DNA of 64,000 nucleotides from Escherichia coli (lineage in GTDB: Bacteria; Pseudomonadota; Gammaproteobacteria; Enterobacterales; Enterobacteriaceae), in the NCBI RefSeq assembly GCF_030013205.1, contig NZ_CP122648.1. One strand, given 5' to 3'. The notes beneath the pieces are model-generated. The model was not told where the DNA came from and ran no database searches. It saw nothing but the letters and a program-made list of their open reading frames with translations. Shown one piece after another: positions 46,063 through 61,373 of this stretch. The position numbers and the translations under genes were made by a program. How positions within the stretch are numbered: the stretch's first letter is position 1; each line of letters starts with the position of its first letter.

Positions 46063-47130
46063 ATGGATAAGAGTAAGCGCCATCTGGCGTGGTGGGTTGT
46101 CGGGTTACTGGCGGTGGCTGCCGTCGTGGCGTGGTGGCTGTTGCGCCCGGCAGGTGTGCCGGAAGGCTTTGCCGTCAGTAATGGGCGCATTGAAGCGACG
46201 GAAGTGGATATCGCCAGCAAAATTGCCGGGCGTATCGATACCATTCTGGTGAAAGAAGGCCAGTTTGTTCGCGAAGGCGAAGTGCTGGCGAAGATGGATA
46301 CTCGCGTGTTGCAGGAGCAGCGACTGGAAGCCATCGCGCAAATCAAAGAAGCGCAAAGCGCCGTTGCTGCTGCGCAGGCTTTGCTGGAGCAACGACAAAG
46401 CGAAACTCGAGCCGCACAGTCGCTGGTCAATCAACGCCAGGCCGAACTGGACTCCGTGGCTAAACGTCATACGCGTTCCCGCTCGCTTGCCCAACGTGGA
46501 GCTATTTCTGCGCAACAGTTGGATGACGACCGCGCCGCCGCTGAGAGCGCCCGAGCTGCGCTGGAATCAGCAAAAGCCCAGGTTTCTGCTTCTAAAGCCG
46601 CTATAGAGGCGGCACGCACCAATATCATTCAGGCGCAAACTCGCGTCGAAGCCGCGCAAGCCACTGAACGGCGCATTGCCGCAGATATCGATGACAGCGA
46701 ACTGAAAGCCCCGCGTGACGGACGCGTGCAGTATCGGGTTGCCGAGCCTGGCGAAGTGCTGGCGGCAGGCGGTCGGGTGCTGAATATGGTCGATCTCAGC
46801 GACGTCTATATGACCTTCTTCCTGCCAACCGAACAGGCGGGCACGCTGAAACTGGGCGGTGAAGCCCGACTGATCCTCGATGCCGCGCCAGATCTGCGTA
46901 TTCCTGCAACCATCAGTTTTGTCGCCAGCGTCGCCCAGTTCACGCCAAAAACCGTCGAAACCAGCGATGAACGGCTGAAACTAATGTTCCGCGTCAAAGC
47001 GCGTATCCCACCGGAATTACTCCAGCAGCATCTGGAATATGTCAAAACCGGTTTGCCGGGCATAGCGTGGGTGCGGGTGAATGAAGAACTTCCGTGGCCT
47101 GACGACCTGGTGGTGAGGTTGCCGCAATGA
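46063..47130 (+). CDS. yhiI: HlyD-family periplasmic adaptor YhiI
   Basis: 355 aa ORF with N-terminal TM helix and coiled coil; stop overlaps the rbbA start. Confidence 0.88.
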
Positions 47131-49862
47131 CGTATCTGGAACTGGTTCCCGTCCCGCCTGTCGCGCAACTGGCGGGCGTGAGCCAGCATTATGGAAAAAC
47201 CGTTGCGCTGAACAATATCACTCTCGATATTCCGGCCCGCTGCATGGTCGGGCTGATTGGCCCGGACGGCGTCGGGAAGTCGAACTTGTTGTCGTTGATT
47301 TCCGGTGCCCGCGTCATTGAGCAGGGCAATGTGATGGTGCTGGGCGGCGATATGCGCGACCCGAAGCATCGCCGTGACGTTTGCCCGCGCATCGCCTGGA
47401 TGCCGCAGGGGCTGGGCAAAAATCTCTACCACACCTTGTCGGTGTATGAAAACGTCGATTTTTTCGCCCGCCTGTTCGGTCACGACAAAGCGGAGCGGGA
47501 AGTGCGAATCAATGAGCTGCTGACCAGCACCGGGTTAGCACCGTTTCGCGATCGTCCGGCAGGGAAACTCTCCGGCGGGATGAAGCAAAAACTTGGGCTG
47601 TGCTGTGCGTTAATCCACGACCCGGAACTGTTGATTCTTGATGAGCCAACAACGGGGGGTGACCCGCTCTCCCGCGCCCAGTTCTGGGATCTGATCGACA
47701 GTATTCGCCAGCGGCAGAGCAATATGAGCGTGCTGGTCGCCACCGCCTATATGGAAGAGGCCGAACGCTTCGACTGGCTGGTAGCGATGAATGCCGGAGA
47801 AGTGCTGGCAACCGGCAGCGCCGAAGAGCTGCGGCAGCAAACGCAAAGCGCCACGCTGGAAGAGGCGTTTATAAATCTGTTACCGCAAGCGCAACGCCAG
47901 GCGCATCAGGCGGTAGTGATCCCACCATATCAACCGGAAAACGCAGAGATTGCCATCGAAGCGCGCGATCTGACCATGCGTTTTGGTTCCTTCGTTGCCG
48001 TTGATCACGTCAATTTCCGCATTCCACGCGGGGAGATTTTTGGTTTTCTTGGTTCGAACGGCTGCGGTAAATCCACCACCATGAAAATGCTTACCGGATT
48101 GCTGCCCGCCAGCGAAGGTGAGGCGTGGCTGTTCGGGCAACCGGTTGATCCAAAAGATATCGATACTCGCCGTCGGGTGGGCTATATGTCGCAGGCGTTT
48201 TCGCTCTATAACGAACTCACCGTGCGGCAAAACCTGGAGTTACATGCCCGTTTGTTTCACATCCCGGAAGCGGAAATTCCCGCGCGAGTGGCTGAAATGA
48301 GCGAGCGTTTTAAGCTCAACGACGTTGAAGATGTTCTGCCGGAGTCATTACCGCTCGGCATTCGCCAGCGGCTTTCGCTGGCGGTGGCGGTGATTCATCG
48401 CCCGGAGATGTTAATCCTCGATGAGCCTACTTCTGGTGTCGATCCGGTGGCGAGGGATATGTTCTGGCAGTTGATGGTCGATCTCTCGCGTCAGGACAAA
48501 GTGACTATCTTCATCTCCACCCACTTTATGAACGAAGCGGAACGTTGCGACCGTATCTCACTGATGCACGCCGGAAAAGTGCTCGCCAGCGGTACACCGC
48601 AGGAACTGGTTGAGAAACGCGGAGCCGCAAGTCTGGAAGAGGCATTTATCGCCTATTTGCAGGAAGCGGCAGGGCAGAGCAACGAAGCCGAAGCGCCGCC
48701 CGTGATACACGACACCACCCACGCGCCGCGTCAGGGATTTAGCCTGCGCCGTCTGTTTAGCTACAGCCGCCGCGAAGCGCTGGAACTGCGACGCGATCCG
48801 GTACGTTCGACGCTGGCGCTGATGGGAACGGTGATCCTGATGCTGATAATGGGTTACGGCATCAGTATGGATGTGGAAAACCTGCGCTTTGCGGTGCTTG
48901 ACCGCGACCAGACCGTCAGTAGCCAGGCGTGGACGCTCAATCTCTCCGGTTCCCGTTACTTTATCGAACAGCCGCCGCTCACCAGTTATGACGAGCTTGA
49001 TCGTCGAATGCGTGCGGGCGATATCACGGTGGCGATTGAGATCCCTCCCAATTTCGGGCGCGATATCGCGCGTGGTACACCCGTGGAACTCGGTGTCTGG
49101 ATCGATGGTGCGATGCCGAGCCGCGCCGAAACGGTAAAAGGCTACGTGCAGGCTATGCACCAGAGCTGGTTACAGGATGTAGCGAGCCGACAATCCACGC
49201 CCGCCAGCCAAAACGGGCTGATGAATATTGAGACGCGCTATCGCTATAACCCGGATGTAAAAAGCCTGCCAGCGATTGTTCCGGCGGTGATCCCGCTTCT
49301 GCTGATGATGATCCCGTCAATGCTAAGCGCTCTTAGCGTGGTGCGGGAAAAAGAGCTAGGGTCGATTATCAACCTTTACGTGACACCCACCACCCGTAGC
49401 GAATTTTTGCTTGGCAAACAGCTGCCGTACATCGCGCTGGGGATGCTGAACTTTTTCCTGCTCTGCGGCCTGTCGGTGTTTGTGTTTGGCGTACCGCATA
49501 AAGGTAGTTTCCTGACGCTCACCCTGGCGGCGCTGCTGTATATCATCATTGCCACCGGAATGGGGCTGCTGATCTCCACCTTTATGAAAAGCCAGATTGC
49601 CGCCATTTTCGGTACGGCGATTATCACGTTGATCCCGGCGACACAGTTTTCCGGGATGATCGATCCGGTAGCTTCGCTGGAAGGTCCAGGACGCTGGATC
49701 GGCGAGGTTTACCCGACCAGTCATTTTCTGACTATCGCCCGCGGGACGTTCTCGAAGGCGCTGGATCTGACTGATTTGTGGCAACTTTTTATCCCGCTGC
49801 TGATAGCCATCCCGCTGGTGATGGGCTTAAGCATCCTGCTGCTGAAAAAACAGGAGGGATGA
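47127..49862 (+). CDS. rbbA: ribosome-associated ATPase RbbA (two ABC ATPase domains fused to an ABC-2 permease)
   Basis: 911 aa ORF with two Walker A motifs ([18 protein letters not shown]) and C-terminal TM helices. Confidence 0.9.
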
Positions 49863-50986
49863 TGCGCCATTTACGCAATATTTTTAATCTGGGTATCAAA
49901 GAGTTGCGCAGTCTGCTCGGTGATAAAGCGATGCTGACGTTGATTGTTTTCTCGTTTACGGTATCGGTGTATTCGTCAGCGACCGTCACGCCAGGATCGT
50001 TGAACCTCGCGCCGATCGCCATAGCCGATATGGATCAATCGCAGTTGTCGAACCGGATCGTTAACAGCTTCTATCGCCCGTGGTTTTTGCCACCGGAGAT
50101 GATCACCGCCGATGAGATGGATGCCGGACTGGACGCCGGACGCTATACCTTCGCGATAAATATTCCGCCTAATTTTCAGCGTGATGTCCTCGCCGGACGC
50201 CAGCCGGATATTCAGGTGAACGTCGATGCCACGCGCATGAGCCAGGCATTCACTGGCAACGGTTATATCCAGAATATTATCAACGGTGAAGTGAACAGCT
50301 TTGTCGCGCGCTACCGTGATAATAGCGAACCGTTGGTATCGCTGGAAACCCGGATGCGCTTTAACCCGAACCTCGATCCCGCGTGGTTTGGCGGGGTGAT
50401 GGCGATCATCAACAACATTACCATGCTGGCGATTGTGCTGACCGGATCGGCGCTGATCCGCGAGCGCGAACACGGCACGGTGGAACACTTACTGGTGATG
50501 CCGATAACGCCGTTTGAGATCATGATGGCGAAGGTCTGGTCGATGGGGTTGGTGGTGCTGGTGGTGTCGGGATTATCGCTGGTACTGATGGTGAAAGGCG
50601 TGCTGGGCGTACCGATTGAAGGCTCGATCCCGCTGTTTATGCTGGGCGTGGCGCTCAGTCTGTTTGCCACTACGTCGATCGGCATTTTTATGGGGACGAT
50701 AGCGCGTTCAATGCCGCAACTGGGGCTGCTGGTGATTCTGGTGCTGCTACCGCTGCAAATGCTTTCCGGTGGATCCACGCCGCGCGAAAGTATGCCGCAG
50801 ACGGTGCAGGACATTATGCTGACCATGCCGACGACACACTTTGTCAGCCTCGCGCAGGCCATTCTCTACCGTGGTGCCGGATTCGAAATCGTCTGGCCGC
50901 AGTTCCTGACGCTGATGGCAATTGGCGGCGCGTTTTTCACCATCGCACTGCTGAGATTCAGGAAGACAATTGGGACAATGGCGTAA
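49859..50986 (+). CDS. yhhJ: ABC-2 family permease YhhJ
   Basis: About 375 aa from [18 protein letters not shown]; start overlaps the rbbA stop. Confidence 0.85.
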
Positions 50987-51088
50987 TTACAGTTGCCCGA
51001 TGCGTAAGCTTATAGGGTCTACGCATTGGTGCAATTTATTGAATTTTAGTTTTTTTTTAGGCCGGATAAGGCGTTTATGAACTGACCA

Positions 51089-51575
<487 letters not shown>

Positions 51576-51874
51576 TTTGTTCTCCTTAATTATGTAAGGA
51601 GAATTTGATCATGTATAAGCAATAAAAAACAGCTTTAGATAATGAGGAATATCTCAATTTTTAAACATAAAATGTGAATTATTTAGTACAAAAAAGCAGC
51701 GTTACGTAATCTTTCCCTGACTAATATATAGTTAAATGCAATCAACTTATTATTCATCGATGCATTTTATAGAATCATCAATGGCTATAATAGTACTATT
51801 AACTCTCAATTTTATATTTTTATCATCACTACAAATATTAACTGAATTTATATCAATGATTTTTATCTTTTATT

Positions 51875-52189
51875 TTATTTTATTTTATTTGCAGTTTCAA
51901 TGCAATCAGCGGCAAGTTGGTGTGAATTTAGATTTTTCAGATATGGTCTTATGATCTTTCCCTTACTTAATAAATAGCATGTATAGGATTCGTAAAGTCC
52001 AGCATCTATTTTGTACCTCATTATATTAGATAAGGATGTGAGAAATTCCTTGTTATCATTCGCAGTCATATATGCCAGTCCGAGTTCAGCCTCTGCGGCC
52101 TTACAGGAAAAATAGCTAAGTGAACACGCTTTTCGTCCCTCTTTAGTACTGGCTGATATTAGTGCCCATAATATTGCTTTGTCTGCCAA
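51875..52189 (-). CDS. hypothetical small protein downstream of the orphan rhs C-terminal fragment (possible orphan immunity gene; TTG start)
   Basis: 104 aa ORF in AT-rich DNA; assigned on position only. Confidence 0.3.
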   Translation of the reverse strand: MADKAILWALISASTKEGRKACSLSYFSCKAAEAELGLAYMTANDNKEFLTSLSNIMRYKIDAGLYESYTCYLLSKGKIIRPYLKNLNSHQLAADCIETANKIK

Positions 52190-52277
52190 ATCTAACTCTC
52201 TCTGAAATTGTCTTGCAGTAAATGCACTCGCAGAAATAGAGAAAAAAATACAATTGTTAATAACTTTGCCATATTTT

Positions 52278-52870
52278 TTAGTCCGTAACTGTTAATGTGC
52301 TATCTGGCTCTGAAAATATTAACTCATTTAATTTTTGCATGTCATTAGATGAACCAGTTATACAACCCTCGGAACAGAATCGAGGTCCTAAAGACGGACC
52401 GAAAGCGTTTAAATAACTATGTATTGAAAATCCATTACGATTATAATTTCCTGTATTAACTGACGGTACTAATCGTATGCCGTCAGGTTTTCTATTGCTT
52501 GCTCCCGGGTCATTAACATTCCAACTCCACAGGCCTTGAGGTATTGGCCCTCTATTTATAAATGTGTACAACGGGGATTATTTTTACATTGCATATTATT
52601 ACCAGAAGCGACTGGAATACTAAGCACATCATAAAAATTATCATCACCTGGTATATCTGAAACACACGAAAGCATACCTAAAGTTATGCTGTATAAACAT
52701 GTGGCTAATCCCAAGGGGATCGATTCCAGAAATCGGGTTCAACGGATACTGATAAAAATTCCACCTACCTTCCAGCCCAATCGGAGCCTGAGTGTTATAC
52801 CGCCCCTGCTGCGGTTAATGTTACCGATAATAGTTATAGTACAGCCCTGATTCATCATCATACTACTGCT
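52278..52870 (-). pseudogene. orphan Rhs C-terminal fragment: core-end remnant with DPLGL motif plus divergent tip, apparently frameshifted
   Basis: Minus strand translates …[24 protein letters not shown]…; the DNA at 52700-52870 is a diverged copy of the main Rhs core 3' end at 54650-54810. Confidence 0.6.
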
Positions 52871-52895
52871 GCGGCAGTCTGATGAATTATTGCTT

Positions 52896-53363
52896 TTACG
52901 GATTCTCCTTATTCTTCCTTCTATCCATTCGCTTTAGCTTTAGCTTTTTGAGCTCTTGAAATTTGCTCTTTGCATCAATATTACCGTTATTTACAGCGAA
53001 TTCCATCCAATAAATAGCTTTATTCAAATTATAATATTCTGATAATATTGGATTTGTATCCGATAAAAAAACCCCATAATTAAACTGCGCTGTAACATTC
53101 CCCTGAGATGCTGATCTTTCTAAGTATTGCAATTGTTTGTAAATGTTATTTTTAGTAAAGCAGTAATATTGATATAGTCGAAATGATGCCTCTGAATCAC
53201 CATGTTGTGATTTATACTTCAGTTTCATCAACTTTTCTTCACTTAAATCATAGGTCATTGCTGTAGACCCCATCATACTTTCGTTTTGTTTTATTTTCAC
53301 ATCAGCACCATGCAATTGAAAAATAAAAGAGAAATAAAAAAATAGTAACAAGCATGCTTTCAT
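52896..53363 (-). CDS. signal-peptide-bearing Sel1-like repeat protein; candidate immunity protein for the Rhs C-terminal toxin
   Basis: 155 aa ORF; N-terminal MKACLLLFFYFSFIFQLHG looks like a signal peptide; Sel1-like segments (SASQGNVTAQFNYGVFL, AIYWMEFAVNNGNIDAK); starts 9 nt after the reconstructed Rhs stop. Confidence 0.5.
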   Translation of the reverse strand: MKACLLLFFYFSFIFQLHGADVKIKQNESMMGSTAMTYDLSEEKLMKLKYKSQHGDSEASFRLYQYYCFTKNNIYKQLQYLERSASQGNVTAQFNYGVFLSDTNPILSEYYNLNKAIYWMEFAVNNGNIDAKSKFQELKKLKLKRMDRRKNKENP

Positions 53364-53478
53364 ACATCTACAACCTATCTTATATCACTGGGTTTTTCTG
53401 GCGTACCTTGCATATTAGAAATGGGGTGCCCAGATGGCCCATATGTTATCCAATTACCAAGGTCTTTTGTTGTTATAG

Positions 53479-54246
53479 GGTAATGACTCCAACTTACTGA
53501 TAGTGTTTTATGTTCAGATAATGCCCGATGACCTTGTCATGCAGCTCCACCGATTTTGAGAACGACAGTGACTTCCGTCCCAGCCTTGCCAGATGTTGTC
53601 TCAGATTCAGGTTATGCCGCTCAATGCGCTGAGTATAACGCTTGCTGATAACGTGCAGCTTTCCCTTCAGGCGTGATTCATACAGCGGCCAGCCATCCGT
53701 CATCCATACCACGACCTCAAAGGCCGACAGCAGGCTCAGAAGACGCTCCAGTGTGGCCAGAGTGCGTTCACCGAAGACGTGCGCCACAACCGTCCTCCGC
53801 ATCCTGTCATACGCGTAAAACAGCCAGCGCTGACGTGATTTAGCACCGACGTAGCCCCACTGTTCGTCCATTTCAGCGCAGACAATCACATCACTGCCCG
53901 GTTGTATGCGCGAGGTTACCGACTGCGGCCTGAGTTTTTTAAGTGGCGGAAAATCGTGTTGAGGCCAACGCCAATAATGCGTGCACTGGCGCGACATCCG
54001 ACGCCATTCATGGCCATATCAATGATTTTCTGGTGCGTACCGGGCTGAGAGGCGGCGTAAGTGAACTGTAGTTGCCATGTTTTACGGCAGTGAGAGCAGA
54101 GATAGCGCTGATGTCCGGCGGTGCTTTTGCCGTTACGCACCACCCCGTCAGTAGCTGAACAGGAGGGACAGCTGATAGAAACAGAAGCCACTGGAGCACC
54201 TCAAAAACACCATCATACACTAAATCAGTAAGTTGGCAGCATCACC
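53479..54246 (-). mobile_element. insAB: IS1 insertion sequence, 768 bp, with insA (53916-54191) and insB (53494-53997), flanked by an 8-bp target-site duplication tgttatag
   Basis: InsA ([30 protein letters not shown]…) and InsB translations; terminal repeats ggtaatgactccaacttactgat and ggtgatgctgccaacttactgat; direct repeat tgttatag at 53471-53478 and 54247-54254. Confidence 0.9.
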
Positions 54247-57200
54247 TGTTATAGCCATTAGATCCTTATTTGAATTAAGGTTCGTTGGTGCTGTTAGCAC
54301 TGTATCCATTTTTAACTTACCATTAGTTCCTCGCCCCCACCACGTCCATAGCGTGTCAGGTCCTATTACATTTGTATGTAACTCTTTAGCTAATTGGCTA
54401 GCAAATGAATTTTGTCCTTTACCTGTATTACAAGAAAATAACCAAACTGTCATCCCATCTTTATAATTCCCATCAAATTTAATTAGATATGCTAGATCTT
54501 TAGCTGTCATGATACTGCGCGTTGCGGATTCAATAGATGTGGGGGTACCATGCCCCCCGATTGTGAAAACGCCTGGGATATTAATCTCATCAGCTACAGA
54601 ATGGATAAGATCACTTTCGGGGTATAAATTTATATCAACCAAACCTTGCGGATCTACATTTATGACCGGATTCAACGGATACTGATAAAAATTCCATCCC
54701 CCCTTCAGCCCAATCGGATCCTGAGTGATATACCGCCCCTGCAGCGGGTCATAATAGCGGTGGCGGTTGTAATACAGGCCGGACTCCTCATCATACTGCT
54801 GACCCGGCAGGCGGATGAGCTGCTGCAGCTGGTGCGGGTTCTCTTCATTCAGCAGGTTGCCCCACTCATCGTATTCTGCGTACCACGCTGTTGCCCCTTC
54901 CGTGCTGACAAGCGCCAGCGGCAGGCCGCGATGGTCGCAGTGGTACAGGTGGATTTTTCGCGCCGGCGTGTACACCGGGTCCATCTGGTTTTGTATCTGC
55001 TCCACCGTCAGGCCGCACGATGCCAGCCAGCGGCGGCTTTCCTCACTCACCCGGTCAGCCAGGATTTCACTTTCCAGCCGGTCGAGCATCTGCACCAGCA
55101 CCGGCGGGAACACCATACTGCCACCGTCTTCACCGCCGGACTGCTGAAGGGCATCCGCCAGGCTGCGGCGCTGCGTTTTCGCCAGCTCACCGGTGGCGGT
55201 TTCGACCCTGATGAGTGGCGTGAAGCTCCCCGGCTGATAAACCGTCTGGATGCGGGTTCTGTCGTTCTGTATCGTGGTCAGCCGGTCGCCGTCCCAGCCG
55301 TACCAGGTCACTTCCGGTTTCCGTGACAGCGACATCCAGCCCGTCAGGTCCCGTTCACGCCGCCACACCCGTTTTGCCACCCTGCGGCCCAGCGGGTTTC
55401 AACCAGCGGCTCTGCATATTGTGTCCGCGTGTAGTGCACCAGCCGGTGCCGGCTGTCGTAATGGTACCGGTGAGTCCGCTCATCATCCGTGCGGATAACC
55501 CCTTCCGGGATGAGGTCGGTTTTCTCCGTCAGCCTGCCGTGACGGTCATACCGGTAAAGATAGTGCGCGTCACGGGCGATACGGTTATCCGGCCACATGC
55601 TGAGGGTGCTGTCCGGGTGCAGCTCCGGGTCGGGCAGGCGGTTGCCCGCCGGGTCCGTGGCATACGGGATGCGGATATCCAGATTCGCTGCGGTGGTGTG
55701 GACGCCGGTCAGCCTGCCGGTGTCGCTGTAGCTGTAACTCCGGGTCTGGCGCGGGCTGCTGATGCGGATGAGTTCGCCGTTGTCGTTCCAGGTGTAATCG
55801 CGGTCATACTGCAGGCTGTTCAGGTGCTGGCTCTGTAACTGCCCGGCAGGGGTGTAAGCGGTGGTGAGTTCATAACGGCCGAAGCTGCGCAGCGTTTCCC
55901 GGTGCAGGCGGTCGCGGGTGTACTCCACCAGCGGTGTGTCGCCGAGTTTCATGCCTGACAGCCAGCCGCTGCCGTAGGTCAGCCATTCCACGGCGGGCAG
56001 GCTGTCCGGTATACAGCGGTTCGCCAGTCCCTGCGTGTTGTAAGCGTGTCTGGTTTCATGCTGCCAGAGCAGTGCTTCCGTCTGCGGATGATGCACCGTC
56101 TGGCGCTCACCGGTCAGGCGGCCTTTCTCATCATACCCGTAATGCACCGTCACCCGGTGGCCTTCGCTGAGATGGCTGATGCCTGTCAGCCAGCCGCGTT
56201 CGTCATACTGCCACTGCTCTGCAGGTTCACCCTTCACGGTGCGGTGAGTGAGGCGGTCTGCTTCGTCATAGTGCCAGTGGGTGACCAGCCCCTCATCCTC
56301 GCTGCGGATAAGTTTACCGGTCAGGTCGTGGTGATAACGCTGTGTGCGGCCGTCAAAGCCGGTTTCCTGTATCAGCCGGTCGAGTACATCGTAACGGAAG
56401 GTGGTGTGGCTGCCGTTTTCACTGGTCAGGCGGATGACCCGTCCGGCAGCATCGTATTCCATACTGCGCGTCAGACCGCCCTGTGTGGTACGGATGGCCT
56501 TTCCCCACGCATCGTACTGTGTCCCGTTTCTGCTGCCGTCCGGGGCAATGACGGCGGTCAGGTCACCGGCGGCGTTGTATTCATACCGCGTTTCATGGCC
56601 CTGCGTGTCTTTCACCGCAATTAACTGTCCACGGCTGTCGTATGCGCGGTACTGACTCAGCCCTTCCTCGCGGTGCACCGCCGTCACCTGACCAAAACGG
56701 TCATGGTCATAACGGGTTACATAACCGGAACAGTCAGTGACGGTCAGCAACTGACCGTAACGGCTCCATGTCATGGTTTTCCGGCTGCCGGTGGCATCTT
56801 CCGTTGCGCAGGGTAAGTCACTGTGTGGATTATCATAACGGTAGCGGGTGATATCGCCGTTGTGTGCGGTTTCCTGAATCAGACGGCCGGATTCATCATA
56901 TTTGCGGCGCAACTCCAGCCCGTCAGTCCCGGTGGCTGACGTTAACTGGTTGTGGTGGTTATAGTAAAATGCCGATGCCCTGCCATCCGGTGTGGTGATG
57001 CGCGTGATGAGTCCCGTCACCACATCCGGGCTGTACTCAGTCGTCCGGCCTGCGGCATCCGTCTGTGCCTTAAGCCCGCCCACCGCGTCAAACTGACTCT
57101 GCGTGACGCTGCCGTCCGCGTGTTCCTTTTTCACCACCCGCTTCAGCCCGCCTTCGCCCTGCGTGTGCAGCACTTCACGGCGGTCCAGACTGTCGGTGAT

Positions 57201-58364
57201 GGTGATGCGGTCTTTCTCATACTGATACGTGTAGCTTAAGCCTGCCGGGTTTAGCTGTTCTGTCACCCGCCCGTCGCTGTCGTAACGGTAACGGATTTCC
57301 GGCCGGCCCGTGTGACGGTGCGCCACCATCCGGCCCCGGTATTTATCATCGTAAGTAAAGCTGCGCACCTGTGTATTGCTGCGGTCATACACCGCCGCCA
57401 GTTCGCCGCGTGGCGTCCAGCCATAGCGCACCAGCGGCGCGGCAGGTAAATTCTCCGGGTATTCCGGGTCGTGCGTCAGCCACACGGCAGACAGACGGAT
57501 GCCGTTGTCCCGGCCATATTCGGTGTAACCCGGCAGGGTATCAGGAAAAGCGGACGGTTCCGTCCCGCCGGAAGAGGCCTGCTGCCGGGCTTCTTCTGCC
57601 CGCTGCGCCTGCGTGGTCAGTACCAGCCGGAAGTGACGCCCGGCACCATCCGTCACGCCGGTGATTTCGCCGCTGAATTCGCCGCCAGCCTCACGGTGAA
57701 ACGTCTGTGTGCGCCCGAAGCGGTCCACCAGCCCGGTCAGTACCCGGTACGGCGGCAGCGGCGCGGGCAGCACCTCATCCGCTTCCGGCACCCGCTCACA
57801 CCAGCCGAGCAGCCACCACGGCCCCTGCGGACTGTTTGTCGCCAGATAACGATGCGGACTTAAGCGGAGTTCTTCCGGCAGCGCCTGCCAGAGTGCGGCC
57901 AGCCGGTGACCTTCATCCAGTTTCAGGACACCGCCACGCACCAGCCAGAGTGATTCGCTGCGGCTGTAACCGTCCTCACCGGGAAACAGGTGCTCAAAAT
58001 ACAGGCTTCTGCCGCCGTTATCACTGAGTATCAGTGTGTTATCGCGCAGCTGTAAGCGGATATCCGCAGGCATTTTCCAGCCGGGGCCTAGGCTTCCCAC
58101 CGGCGCGGGCGTTTTTGTCCGGTAACTGCTGTAGGTGCGGGAGAGGATGAACGGCAGCGGGCCGGGCAGTGCAAGGTCTGTCTCGCCGGGAAGGACCTTC
58201 GCACCGAGCAGCGGATTGACCGGATGGCCGGACGTCACCCCGCCGGGGCACACCGAACAGGCCACGCCGGTGGGGGCACCAATACGTACCCCGGCTGAAC
58301 CCTGGACAATGCTACCGCCATACTGCGTCATGTCGCCCTGACGCGCCGCCGGTTTTCCGCTCAT
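54247..58364 (-). pseudogene. rhs: Rhs-family YD-repeat protein, disrupted twice: frame switch near 55391-55400 and IS1 insertion into the C-terminal tip
   Basis: N-terminus [44 protein letters not shown] repeats; frame A stops at 55344 while frame B carries [17 protein letters not shown]…DPQGL and the tip; the last 8 codons of the tip ORF are IS1 terminal-repeat sequence. Confidence 0.85.
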
Positions 58365-58566
58365 CGTAAAATCCTTTTCTATTATTTTAATGACAGTATC
58401 TTCATACGAAAAAGCGAAGAAAAACTTGTGGTCACAATGAATTGAAGATTTTTAGGAATATATTTAGAACGTTACAAAAGAGAAGGTTCGGATAGGGTAT
58501 TTAGAGAGGAATCAGGTGTGCTAGTGGCCCTTTGTTGATCGTTCACCAAAGGACCCAATAATAGGC

Positions 58567-61369
<2,803 letters not shown>

Positions 61370-61373
<4 letters not shown>

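Follow-up and report, generated by a model that had tools for sequence, protein, structure and literature searches.

Can an rhs C-terminal cassette that is not attached to a core still serve as a reserve from which a toxin is switched on? The question is raised by positions 51,875 to 52,870 of a stretch of 64,000 nucleotides (nt) from Escherichia coli contig NZ_CP122648.1 (assembly GCF_030013205.1), referred to below as the window. An earlier note, made from the sequence alone, had described here an orphan Rhs C-terminal cassette downstream of the main Rhs gene and had seen in it a silent reservoir for toxin switching by recombination. We could confirm the cassette, which consists of a core stub, a tip and an Imm57 gene and lies downstream of a full-length rhs gene. 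The reservoir role, in contrast, fails for the window copy, because its stub is interrupted by stop codons and has no more than ~80% identity to the core, its toxin carries several lesions, and its immunity gene has lost both the leader and the C-terminal tail. The region is very probably a displaced, decayed Rhs tip, in which a 152-nt old or foreign core-end stub is followed by a toxin domain of the Tlde1/DUF2778 type and an Imm57 gene. Judged by sequence, the cassette is the homologue of yibS/yibW/yibV of strain K-12 and closes an rhs array at rhsB that is otherwise dead. Its parts are listed here, with open reading frame abbreviated as ORF.

52734..52885, minus strand: Rhs core-end stub, the equivalent of K-12 yibS, 100% identical to it and 79.6% identical to the main core end.
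52710..52721, minus strand: remnant of the DPxGL core/tip boundary, GATCCCCTTGGG, with a 1-nt insertion that makes a +1 frameshift.
52556..52714, minus strand: N-terminal part of the toxin tip, ending in ASGNNMQCKNNPRCTHL and a stop; placed by the ORF list, the alignment to strain PE164 and a family alignment with ASGNN and CKNN motifs.
52278..52571, minus strand: C-terminal part of the toxin tip with the catalytic region GFSIHSYLNAFGPSLGPRFCSEGCITG, the equivalent of K-12 yibW; a domain of the Tlde1/LD-transpeptidase fold.
52239..52272, minus strand: ATG of the Imm57 gene (52272-52270) and signal-peptide remnant MAKLLTIVFF..., in which a run of 7 T breaks the frame.
51875..52189, minus strand: Imm57 domain ORF of 104 amino acids with a TTG start, the equivalent of K-12 yibV; no signal peptide and an early stop.
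51750..51874, minus strand: remnant of the Imm57 C-terminal tail, out of frame, recognized by alignment to intact alleles of 173 amino acids.

Composition of the cassette

The stub was investigated by blastn of the query 52650-52920 against the whole window, and a MAFFT alignment was also made. We observed one match besides the query itself: positions 52734-52885 aligned without gaps to 54667-54818, the core end of the main rhs gene, over 152 nt with 79.6% identity (E 4.5e-34). This E value rules out chance as the source of the similarity. The alignment bears out the earlier proposal that 52700-52870 duplicates the 3' end of the main core (54650-54810), with coordinates that were good to ~15 nt. 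On the minus strand the stub reads RLPQQ, stop, YDDESGLYYNYYR, stop, H, stop, PQQGRY..., with the PxxxxDPxGL boundary motif at its end and a frameshift inside this motif. The in-frame stops are TAG at 52865-52863 and TAA at 52823-52821 and at 52817-52815, and alignment to the intact gene of PE164 places the extra base of the DPLGL motif near 52719, an insertion that K-12 has as well. The stub peptide given previously was correct up to DPLG, but the final L of DPLGL needs a change of frame, and the three stops had been missed. Since yibG lies directly upstream, no core is attached to the stub, which is thus an unattached core-end fragment carrying the PxxxxDPxGL motif. Moreover, because the stub is equally distant from the core ends of rhsA, rhsD and yibJ (78-80% identity to each), it is no copy of the neighboring main core. 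Nor was there support for deriving the stub from the rhsD/E clade of cores, the distance to the rhsA, rhsD and yibJ stubs being the same (78-80%).

The tip that follows has a GC (guanine plus cytosine) content of 30-36%, compared to 60-68% for the core, and the AT-rich tips as a whole range from 28 to 36%. This variable, AT-rich tip is attached to an Rhs protein elsewhere: an uninterrupted Rhs of 1392 amino acids, encoded at the rhsA locus of PE164, bears its intact counterpart, and the two tips are 87-95% identical at the DNA level. After repair of its frame, the window tip scored 27.9 bits against the Pfam family Tlde1_dom (PF10908, formerly DUF2778), for which the cut-off is 30.1, and matched YkuD weakly. 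The intact PE164 tip scored 33.7 bits. Because this intact homologue lies over the cut-off, we assign the tip lineage to the Tlde1/DUF2778 family on the strength of the profile match, with the decayed window copy slightly under the cut-off.

Sequence searches against PDB chains missed the toxin domain, which phmmer of the intact tip left unmatched, while a profile search gave matches restricted to the Rhs core-end part; NCBIfam likewise had no family for the cassette tip. The fold was thus assigned through a structural model and Foldseek. The AlphaFold2 model of the intact tip had a predicted local distance difference test score (pLDDT) of 88.7 and a predicted template-modeling score (pTM) of 0.84, and its top 17 Foldseek matches in the PDB were all YkuD-fold LD-transpeptidases or LD-carboxypeptidases. 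Bd1075, DpaA, Pgp2, Csd6, LdtMt5 and Ldtfm are among the fold matches.

Among 5.8 billion proteins, we found 33 relatives of the tip, many of them annotated as RHS or tlde1-domain proteins, in Ralstonia, Paraburkholderia, Acidobacteria and metagenomes; homologous tips fused to Rhs core ends occur in Ralstonia, Paraburkholderia and metagenomes. The ASGNN, CKNN, GPxPxGxW, HSC and CSxGC motifs and several cysteines are invariant in the alignment of these relatives. The catalytic H-x(n)-[S/T]-x-G-C motif is present in the window as IHS...CSEGCI, with a His-Cys spacing of 19 residues, and among 22 homologues His100, Ser116 and Gly118 are invariant and Cys119 nearly so. By family membership and modeled fold, the tip is predicted to be a peptidoglycan toxin domain of the Tlde1/DUF2778 type with an L,D-transpeptidase fold. 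The earlier note had suggested searching the tip fragment against toxin families and looking for intact full-length rhs fusions in other strains; the former search returned the Tlde1/LD-peptidase domain and the latter the attached tip of PE164.

A small immunity ORF stands right after the tip, the ATG of the Imm57 gene being located 5 nt past the tip stop codon. The downstream ORF of 104 amino acids, which had been regarded as a possible immunity gene, is indeed present and matched Pfam Imm57 (PF15596) with an E value of 5.6e-45 and 152 bits (cut-off 25) across positions 2-100 of the 100-position profile. Its identity to K-12 yibV is 97%. Intact Imm57 alleles start with MAKLLTIVFFFSISASAVTA.., MTRLLTIVLFFSISANAVTV.. 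or MRSTFFIFLLLLFFSTATLA.., N termini that look like signal peptides by their sequence.

The same combination was listed by Zhang et al. 2012 (PMC3482391), where Tox-LD-peptidase occurs with RHS repeats and Imm16/Imm57, and where D, SE and C are given as the conserved residues of Imm57. The pairing is a computational prediction there, and no biochemical test of the LD-peptidase tip/Imm57 pair was found in the literature searched. Relatives of the tip are found among the Tlde1/DUF2778 effectors of type VI secretion systems (T6SS) (Sibinelli-Sousa et al. 2020; Tae5-7 in the preprint), including the Rhs-DUF2778 protein WP_052983304.1 of Shigella sonnei. According to the Tlde1 preprint (bioRxiv 10.1101/2020.02.18.954545), Rhs-DUF2778 fusions occur in 11% of the genomes holding one subfamily, and Salmonella Tlde1 shows periplasmic toxicity through its His/Cys site and activity on peptidoglycan; such LD-carboxypeptidase or transpeptidase-exchange activity is known for the Salmonella enzyme only. 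The toxin/immunity type was therefore predicted in 2012 and has been partly characterized from 2020 on. The tip resembles the Tlde1 effectors in its Tlde1_dom match, LD-transpeptidase fold, His ... S-x-G-C motif, Rhs fusion and predicted periplasmic target. In contrast, Salmonella Tlde1 stands alone and has a DUF2195 protein for immunity, while the cassette tip pairs with Imm57; the 19-residue His-Cys spacing is nearer to that of classical YkuD than to the short spacing reported for DUF2778; and the window copy of the tip is inactive, unlike Salmonella Tlde1. If an intact module behaves as its families suggest, the tip would be delivered by the Rhs shell via the type VI system and released after the DPxGL motif. 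It would then attack stem peptides of peptidoglycan in the periplasm with its His/Cys active site, and Sec-exported Imm57 would block it.

Lesions in the toxin and immunity genes

As the earlier note had recognized, the tip is frameshifted and continues as the ORF 52278-52571; it is split into the ORFs 52714-52556 and 52571-52278. The N-terminal ORF stops at TAA 52558-52556, where the intact gene has CAA, and a 1-nt deletion comes next. A 9-nt in-frame gap relative to intact PE164 is located near 52605. Furthermore, the codon at 52415-52413 is TAT (Tyr, residue 102) at a site where Cys is invariant in the homologues, and this Tyr is private to the window lineage. With the stops of the stub, the +1 frameshift, the TAA and deletion, the Cys>Tyr change, and a leader frameshift and early stop in the immunity gene, neither the tip nor the immunity gene is open. 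The ORFs 52278-52571 and 51875-52189 are pseudogene fragments and should not pass as independent genes in annotation.

These lesions bear directly on the notion of a usable silent cassette, from which a working tip and its immunity gene would be brought in by recombination of the stub with the main core. Attached (PE164) and unattached (XH990, K-12) states of the same tip do both occur, activation of orphans by recombination has been described for rhs (PMC3150448, PMC2935791), and in ~74-98 genomes the orphan tip is open and the 8-T Imm57 gene intact. In the window, however, the homology arm measures only 152 nt, matches the core at ~80% and is interrupted by three stops; a frameshift, a nonsense codon with its adjoining deletion and the replacement of an invariant Cys by Tyr damage the tip; and the immunity gene is without a leader. 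The presumed recipient is no better, since what the earlier note had called the main Rhs gene is itself a pseudogene, broken by a 16-nt deletion and by IS1. Moreover, the lesions are ancient and common to K-12. We hold a usable cassette to be extremely improbable, and for the window copy the proposal is refuted barring several independent reversions. As far as its sequence can tell, no toxin would be made from the window cassette, and a single crossover could not be expected to revive it. Not every orphan tip should thus be taken for a usable reserve.

Could the frameshifts and stops instead be errors of sequencing or assembly in a cassette that is really intact? One lesion does lie in a homopolymer, the run of 7 T, which is a common site of error. 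On the other hand, K-12 MG1655 shares the disabling lesions, the exceptions being Cys>Tyr and the way in which the immunity gene is truncated at its 3' end, and three of the lesions are base substitutions to stops. Independent assemblies are 100% identical to the window: K_EC180 over a 1041-nt query and porcine strains over the 1101-nt stretch 50900-52000. The exact 7-T form was observed in 3280 genomes (~60% of complete E. coli), compared to 74 with the 8-T form; because of this spread, the 7-T run is a fixed mutation and not an error. An explanation by error is next to impossible and is refuted by the population data. The lesions are old, fixed decay.

The immunity gene was examined in the same way. 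Intact alleles have 8 T or CTTTTCTT where the window has 7 T (52248-52242), which puts the leader out of frame, so that the window copy has no leader for export. The 8-T allele of XH990 starts with MAKLLTIVFFFSISASAVTARQFQ... and encodes 173 amino acids, and the allele at the rhsA locus of K_EC180 is intact too. At the 3' end, an indel in A-rich repeats of the AAATA type (51890-51858) results in a stop at 51877-51875 and the loss of ~45 C-terminal residues.

The length of these AAATA-type repeats (51858-51890) varies between the window, K-12 and PE164, giving database products of 103-128 amino acids; the tract looks prone to slippage.

The Imm57 domain of the window copy shows four private replacements (A42T, S66Y, P89S and V100A) and zero private synonymous changes. 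S66Y gives GLYESYTC in place of GLSESYTC, and the Ser lost belongs to the sole SE pair that is conserved in the homologues examined; the cysteines are retained. This pair would correspond to the SE of the published Imm57 signature. In deeper comparisons of Imm57, the ratio of nonsynonymous to synonymous polymorphism (pN/pS) was ~0.2-0.35, and among the alleles other than that of the window it was ~0.2-0.3. The private changes, small in number, point to relaxed constraint on the window copy, and the leaderless 104-amino-acid ORF is probably nonfunctional.

Another proposal is that the Imm57 remnant has been retained as protection against the Rhs-Tlde1 toxins of rivals, either as a leaderless protein from the TTG or as a protein exported by way of slippage on the 7-T run or of an ATT start. 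Consistent with this, the Imm57 domain is open in all alleles examined despite the broken toxin, the deeper comparisons gave the pN/pS values mentioned above, the 7-T allele adjoins an open core-attached toxin gene in PE164, and T6SS loci are known to hold orphan immunity genes. In addition, a 169-amino-acid product of the 7-T allele is present in 'nr' (P0041, 788 members); it begins with MNNCIFFSISASA..., the first residue falling on an ATT that is in frame with Imm57. ATT is a very rare initiator in E. coli, and this product is probably a device of annotation and no sign of translation. Several observations speak against such retained protection. The toxin is predicted to act in the periplasm, and the intact Imm57 proteins carry putative signal peptides, so that a protein lacking the leader would not reach the compartment where it is needed. 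The private changes are all amino acid replacements, one of them in the SE motif. The window copy would also be redundant, because the closest sequenced genome, K_EC180, has an intact Imm57 paralogue at rhsA. E105, the sister of PE164, has an attached rhs gene with an internal stop, so that this lineage offers no evidence of working immunity. Finally, a scan for promoters and terminators revealed no enrichment over shuffled sequences. We consider retained protection unlikely. Still less likely is its narrower form, in which the 7-T allele is alive and transcriptional or ribosomal slippage on U7, or the rare ATT start, yields a little exported Imm57. If true, the leaky 7-T allele would amount to a widespread 'herd' immunity against rare strains with a working Rhs-Tlde1 toxin, and it would explain an open domain beside a ruined toxin and beside the open attached toxin gene of PE164.

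We thus retain the reading of a displaced and decayed Rhs tip, although some points weigh against it. Translation from the TTG could still yield an Imm57 fragment without a leader, and the tests of nonsynonymous to synonymous substitution rates (dN/dS) rest on very few substitutions and are not decisive. The rhsA paralogue is known from K_EC180, a genome whose identity to the window at rhsB covers the 1041-nt query. The direction and the mechanism of displacement are read from strain comparison and were not observed.

The cassette in other E. coli genomes

In K-12 MG1655, the order downstream of rhsA-yibA-yibJ is yibG, yibS (pseudogene), yibW (pseudogene), yibV (PF15596 family protein) and yibU. 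A four-way alignment gave identities between the window and K-12 of 100% for the stub, 97.5-98.4% for the tip and 97% for the Imm57 part. The window cassette thus resembles yibS/yibW/yibV in sequence, in its order after yibG and in its stops and frameshifts. Its damage goes beyond that of K-12 by the toxin Cys>Tyr change, the four Imm57 replacements and a different 3' indel. Also unlike the K-12 cassette, which is on the rhsA side, it is located at rhsB (nikR ... yhhJ), beside the left end of an ISAs1/H-rpt element.

By megablast with the query 51860-52900, the cassette was detected in 3690 of the 5426 complete E. coli genomes; its place is almost always between yibF and yibH. RefSeq labels the genes after yibG as 'RHS repeat-associated core domain-containing protein' (pseudogene) and 'Imm57 family immunity protein'. 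The cassette is therefore already known, an ordinary and annotated K-12 relic carried by about two thirds of complete E. coli genomes. The sole relevant mention that a literature search for yibV, yibS and yibW returned is a promoter table. The cassette occurs in these states.

State A, tip attached to a full-length rhs: PE164, E105 and F2_81 (3 genomes, apparently one lineage).
State B, unattached open tip with a modern core stub of 450 nt and an Imm57 gene of the intact 8-T form: XH990 (~74-98 genomes).
State C, 3' fragment of the toxin with an intact Imm57 gene: rhsA locus of K_EC180 (~300 genomes).
State D, eroded K-12 type: K-12 and the window (>3000 genomes).

Attached or intact versions of the tip are a minority among the other strains. 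This series of four states agrees with the model of C-terminal displacement (Jackson et al. 2009, PMC2935791) and with the orphan-module concept (Poole et al. 2011, PMC3150448), and documents a life cycle of Rhs tips from weapon to displaced spare to fossil. From the comparison of strains, the cassette would once have been the resident tip of an ancestral element. Newer tip/immunity modules may then have recombined onto the core end and pushed it downstream, unattached, where it would have gathered its inactivating mutations. Like the orphan modules described in these two studies, the cassette follows a full-length rhs and has a short stub, an AT-rich tip and a small ORF for immunity, and strains differ in whether this tip is attached. 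The stubs of Jackson et al. are identical to the resident core at a locus, whereas the window stub is ~80% identical to any E. coli core end tested; with its many stops, it is a relic of long standing and not a module ready for recombination.

PE164 and E105 have protein accessions in common, and in E105 the Imm57 gene adjacent to the interrupted rhs is the frameshifted 7-T form.

The only lineage with an attached Tlde1-type tip thus has a frameshifted 7-T Imm57 gene alongside. Its presence beside the open toxin gene of PE164 could hint at recoding or an alternative start; a decaying locus is the simpler explanation.

The rhsB locus around the cassette

The neighboring features are as follows.

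52896..53363, minus strand: yibG, encoding a Sel1-repeat protein, intact; identified from the RefSeq annotation of an identical locus, 97% identity to K-12 and a weak Sel1 match.
53479..54246, minus strand: IS1, inserted into the main rhs tip at its 3' end and flanked by the 8-bp target duplication CTATAACA (54254-54247 and 53478-53471).
54220..58364, minus strand: main rhs gene, a pseudogene, with a tip of the K-12 yibJ type cut by IS1.
51141..51728, minus strand: truncated ISAs1/H-rpt element (yhhI-like), identified by blastn to the K-12 rhsB locus and Pfam DDE_Tnp_1_assoc.

The gene order nikA-E, nikR, rhs, ..., yhhJ, rbbA identifies the locus as rhsB and not rhsA. It is a mosaic: the core is equally like K-12 rhsA and rhsB (96%), the part from 55110 on corresponds to the yibJ orphan of K-12 (97.8%) and then to yibG-yibS-yibW-yibV (97.2%), and the part from 51694 on to the H-rpt/yhhI and yhhJ of the K-12 rhsB side. 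In the main rhs gene, a 16-nt deletion near 55398 (AGTCGCTATCTTTACG in both K-12 rhsA and rhsB) shifts the frame and leaves the ORFs 58364-55344 and 55380-54220. Its attached tip (54247-55110) is of the K-12 yibJ type, with 97.8% identity, and had no family in either Pfam or NCBIfam. This yibJ tip is attached in the window and is an unattached pseudogene in K-12. IS1 supplies the last 8 codons of the main rhs ORF, the true last ~33 codons being located at ~53478-53377. The main rhs gene is thus a pseudogene and, of the rhs array, only yibG looks intact; yibG is presumed to be the immunity gene of the yibJ-type tip upstream. The whole locus is a graveyard of dead rhs parts.

The ISAs1/H-rpt element has a 713-bp internal deletion at 51188/51189 relative to K-12 yhhI, and its left end abuts the Imm57 tail. 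This Imm57/ISAs1 junction, together with the whole arrangement, was found in 22 of the 5426 complete genomes, always at rhsB. The carriers comprise 18 near-identical genomes of porcine enterotoxigenic E. coli (ETEC) or O139:H1 and 4 genomes of a diverged lineage in which both yhhI and Imm57 are intact. The two lineages are ~9% diverged at the junction, and an rhsA locus bearing the junction was not found. There is no support for the array having recently moved from rhsA to rhsB by way of core and H-rpt homology, as the junction occurs only at rhsB. The rhsB locus of K_EC180 is identical to the window over the 1041-nt query, and its rhsA locus holds a 3' fragment of the toxin with an intact 173-amino-acid Imm57 including the leader.

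From ~47000 to 64000, gene order and sequence are 99.9-100% like those of porcine E. coli (ETEC and the O139:H1 edema-disease type; K_EC180, W13-16, ETEC4067 and others). In the rbbA ORF (47127-49862, plus strand), we noted the residues at the site where the Walker B/D-loop regions of ABC transporters usually show EPTxGxD.

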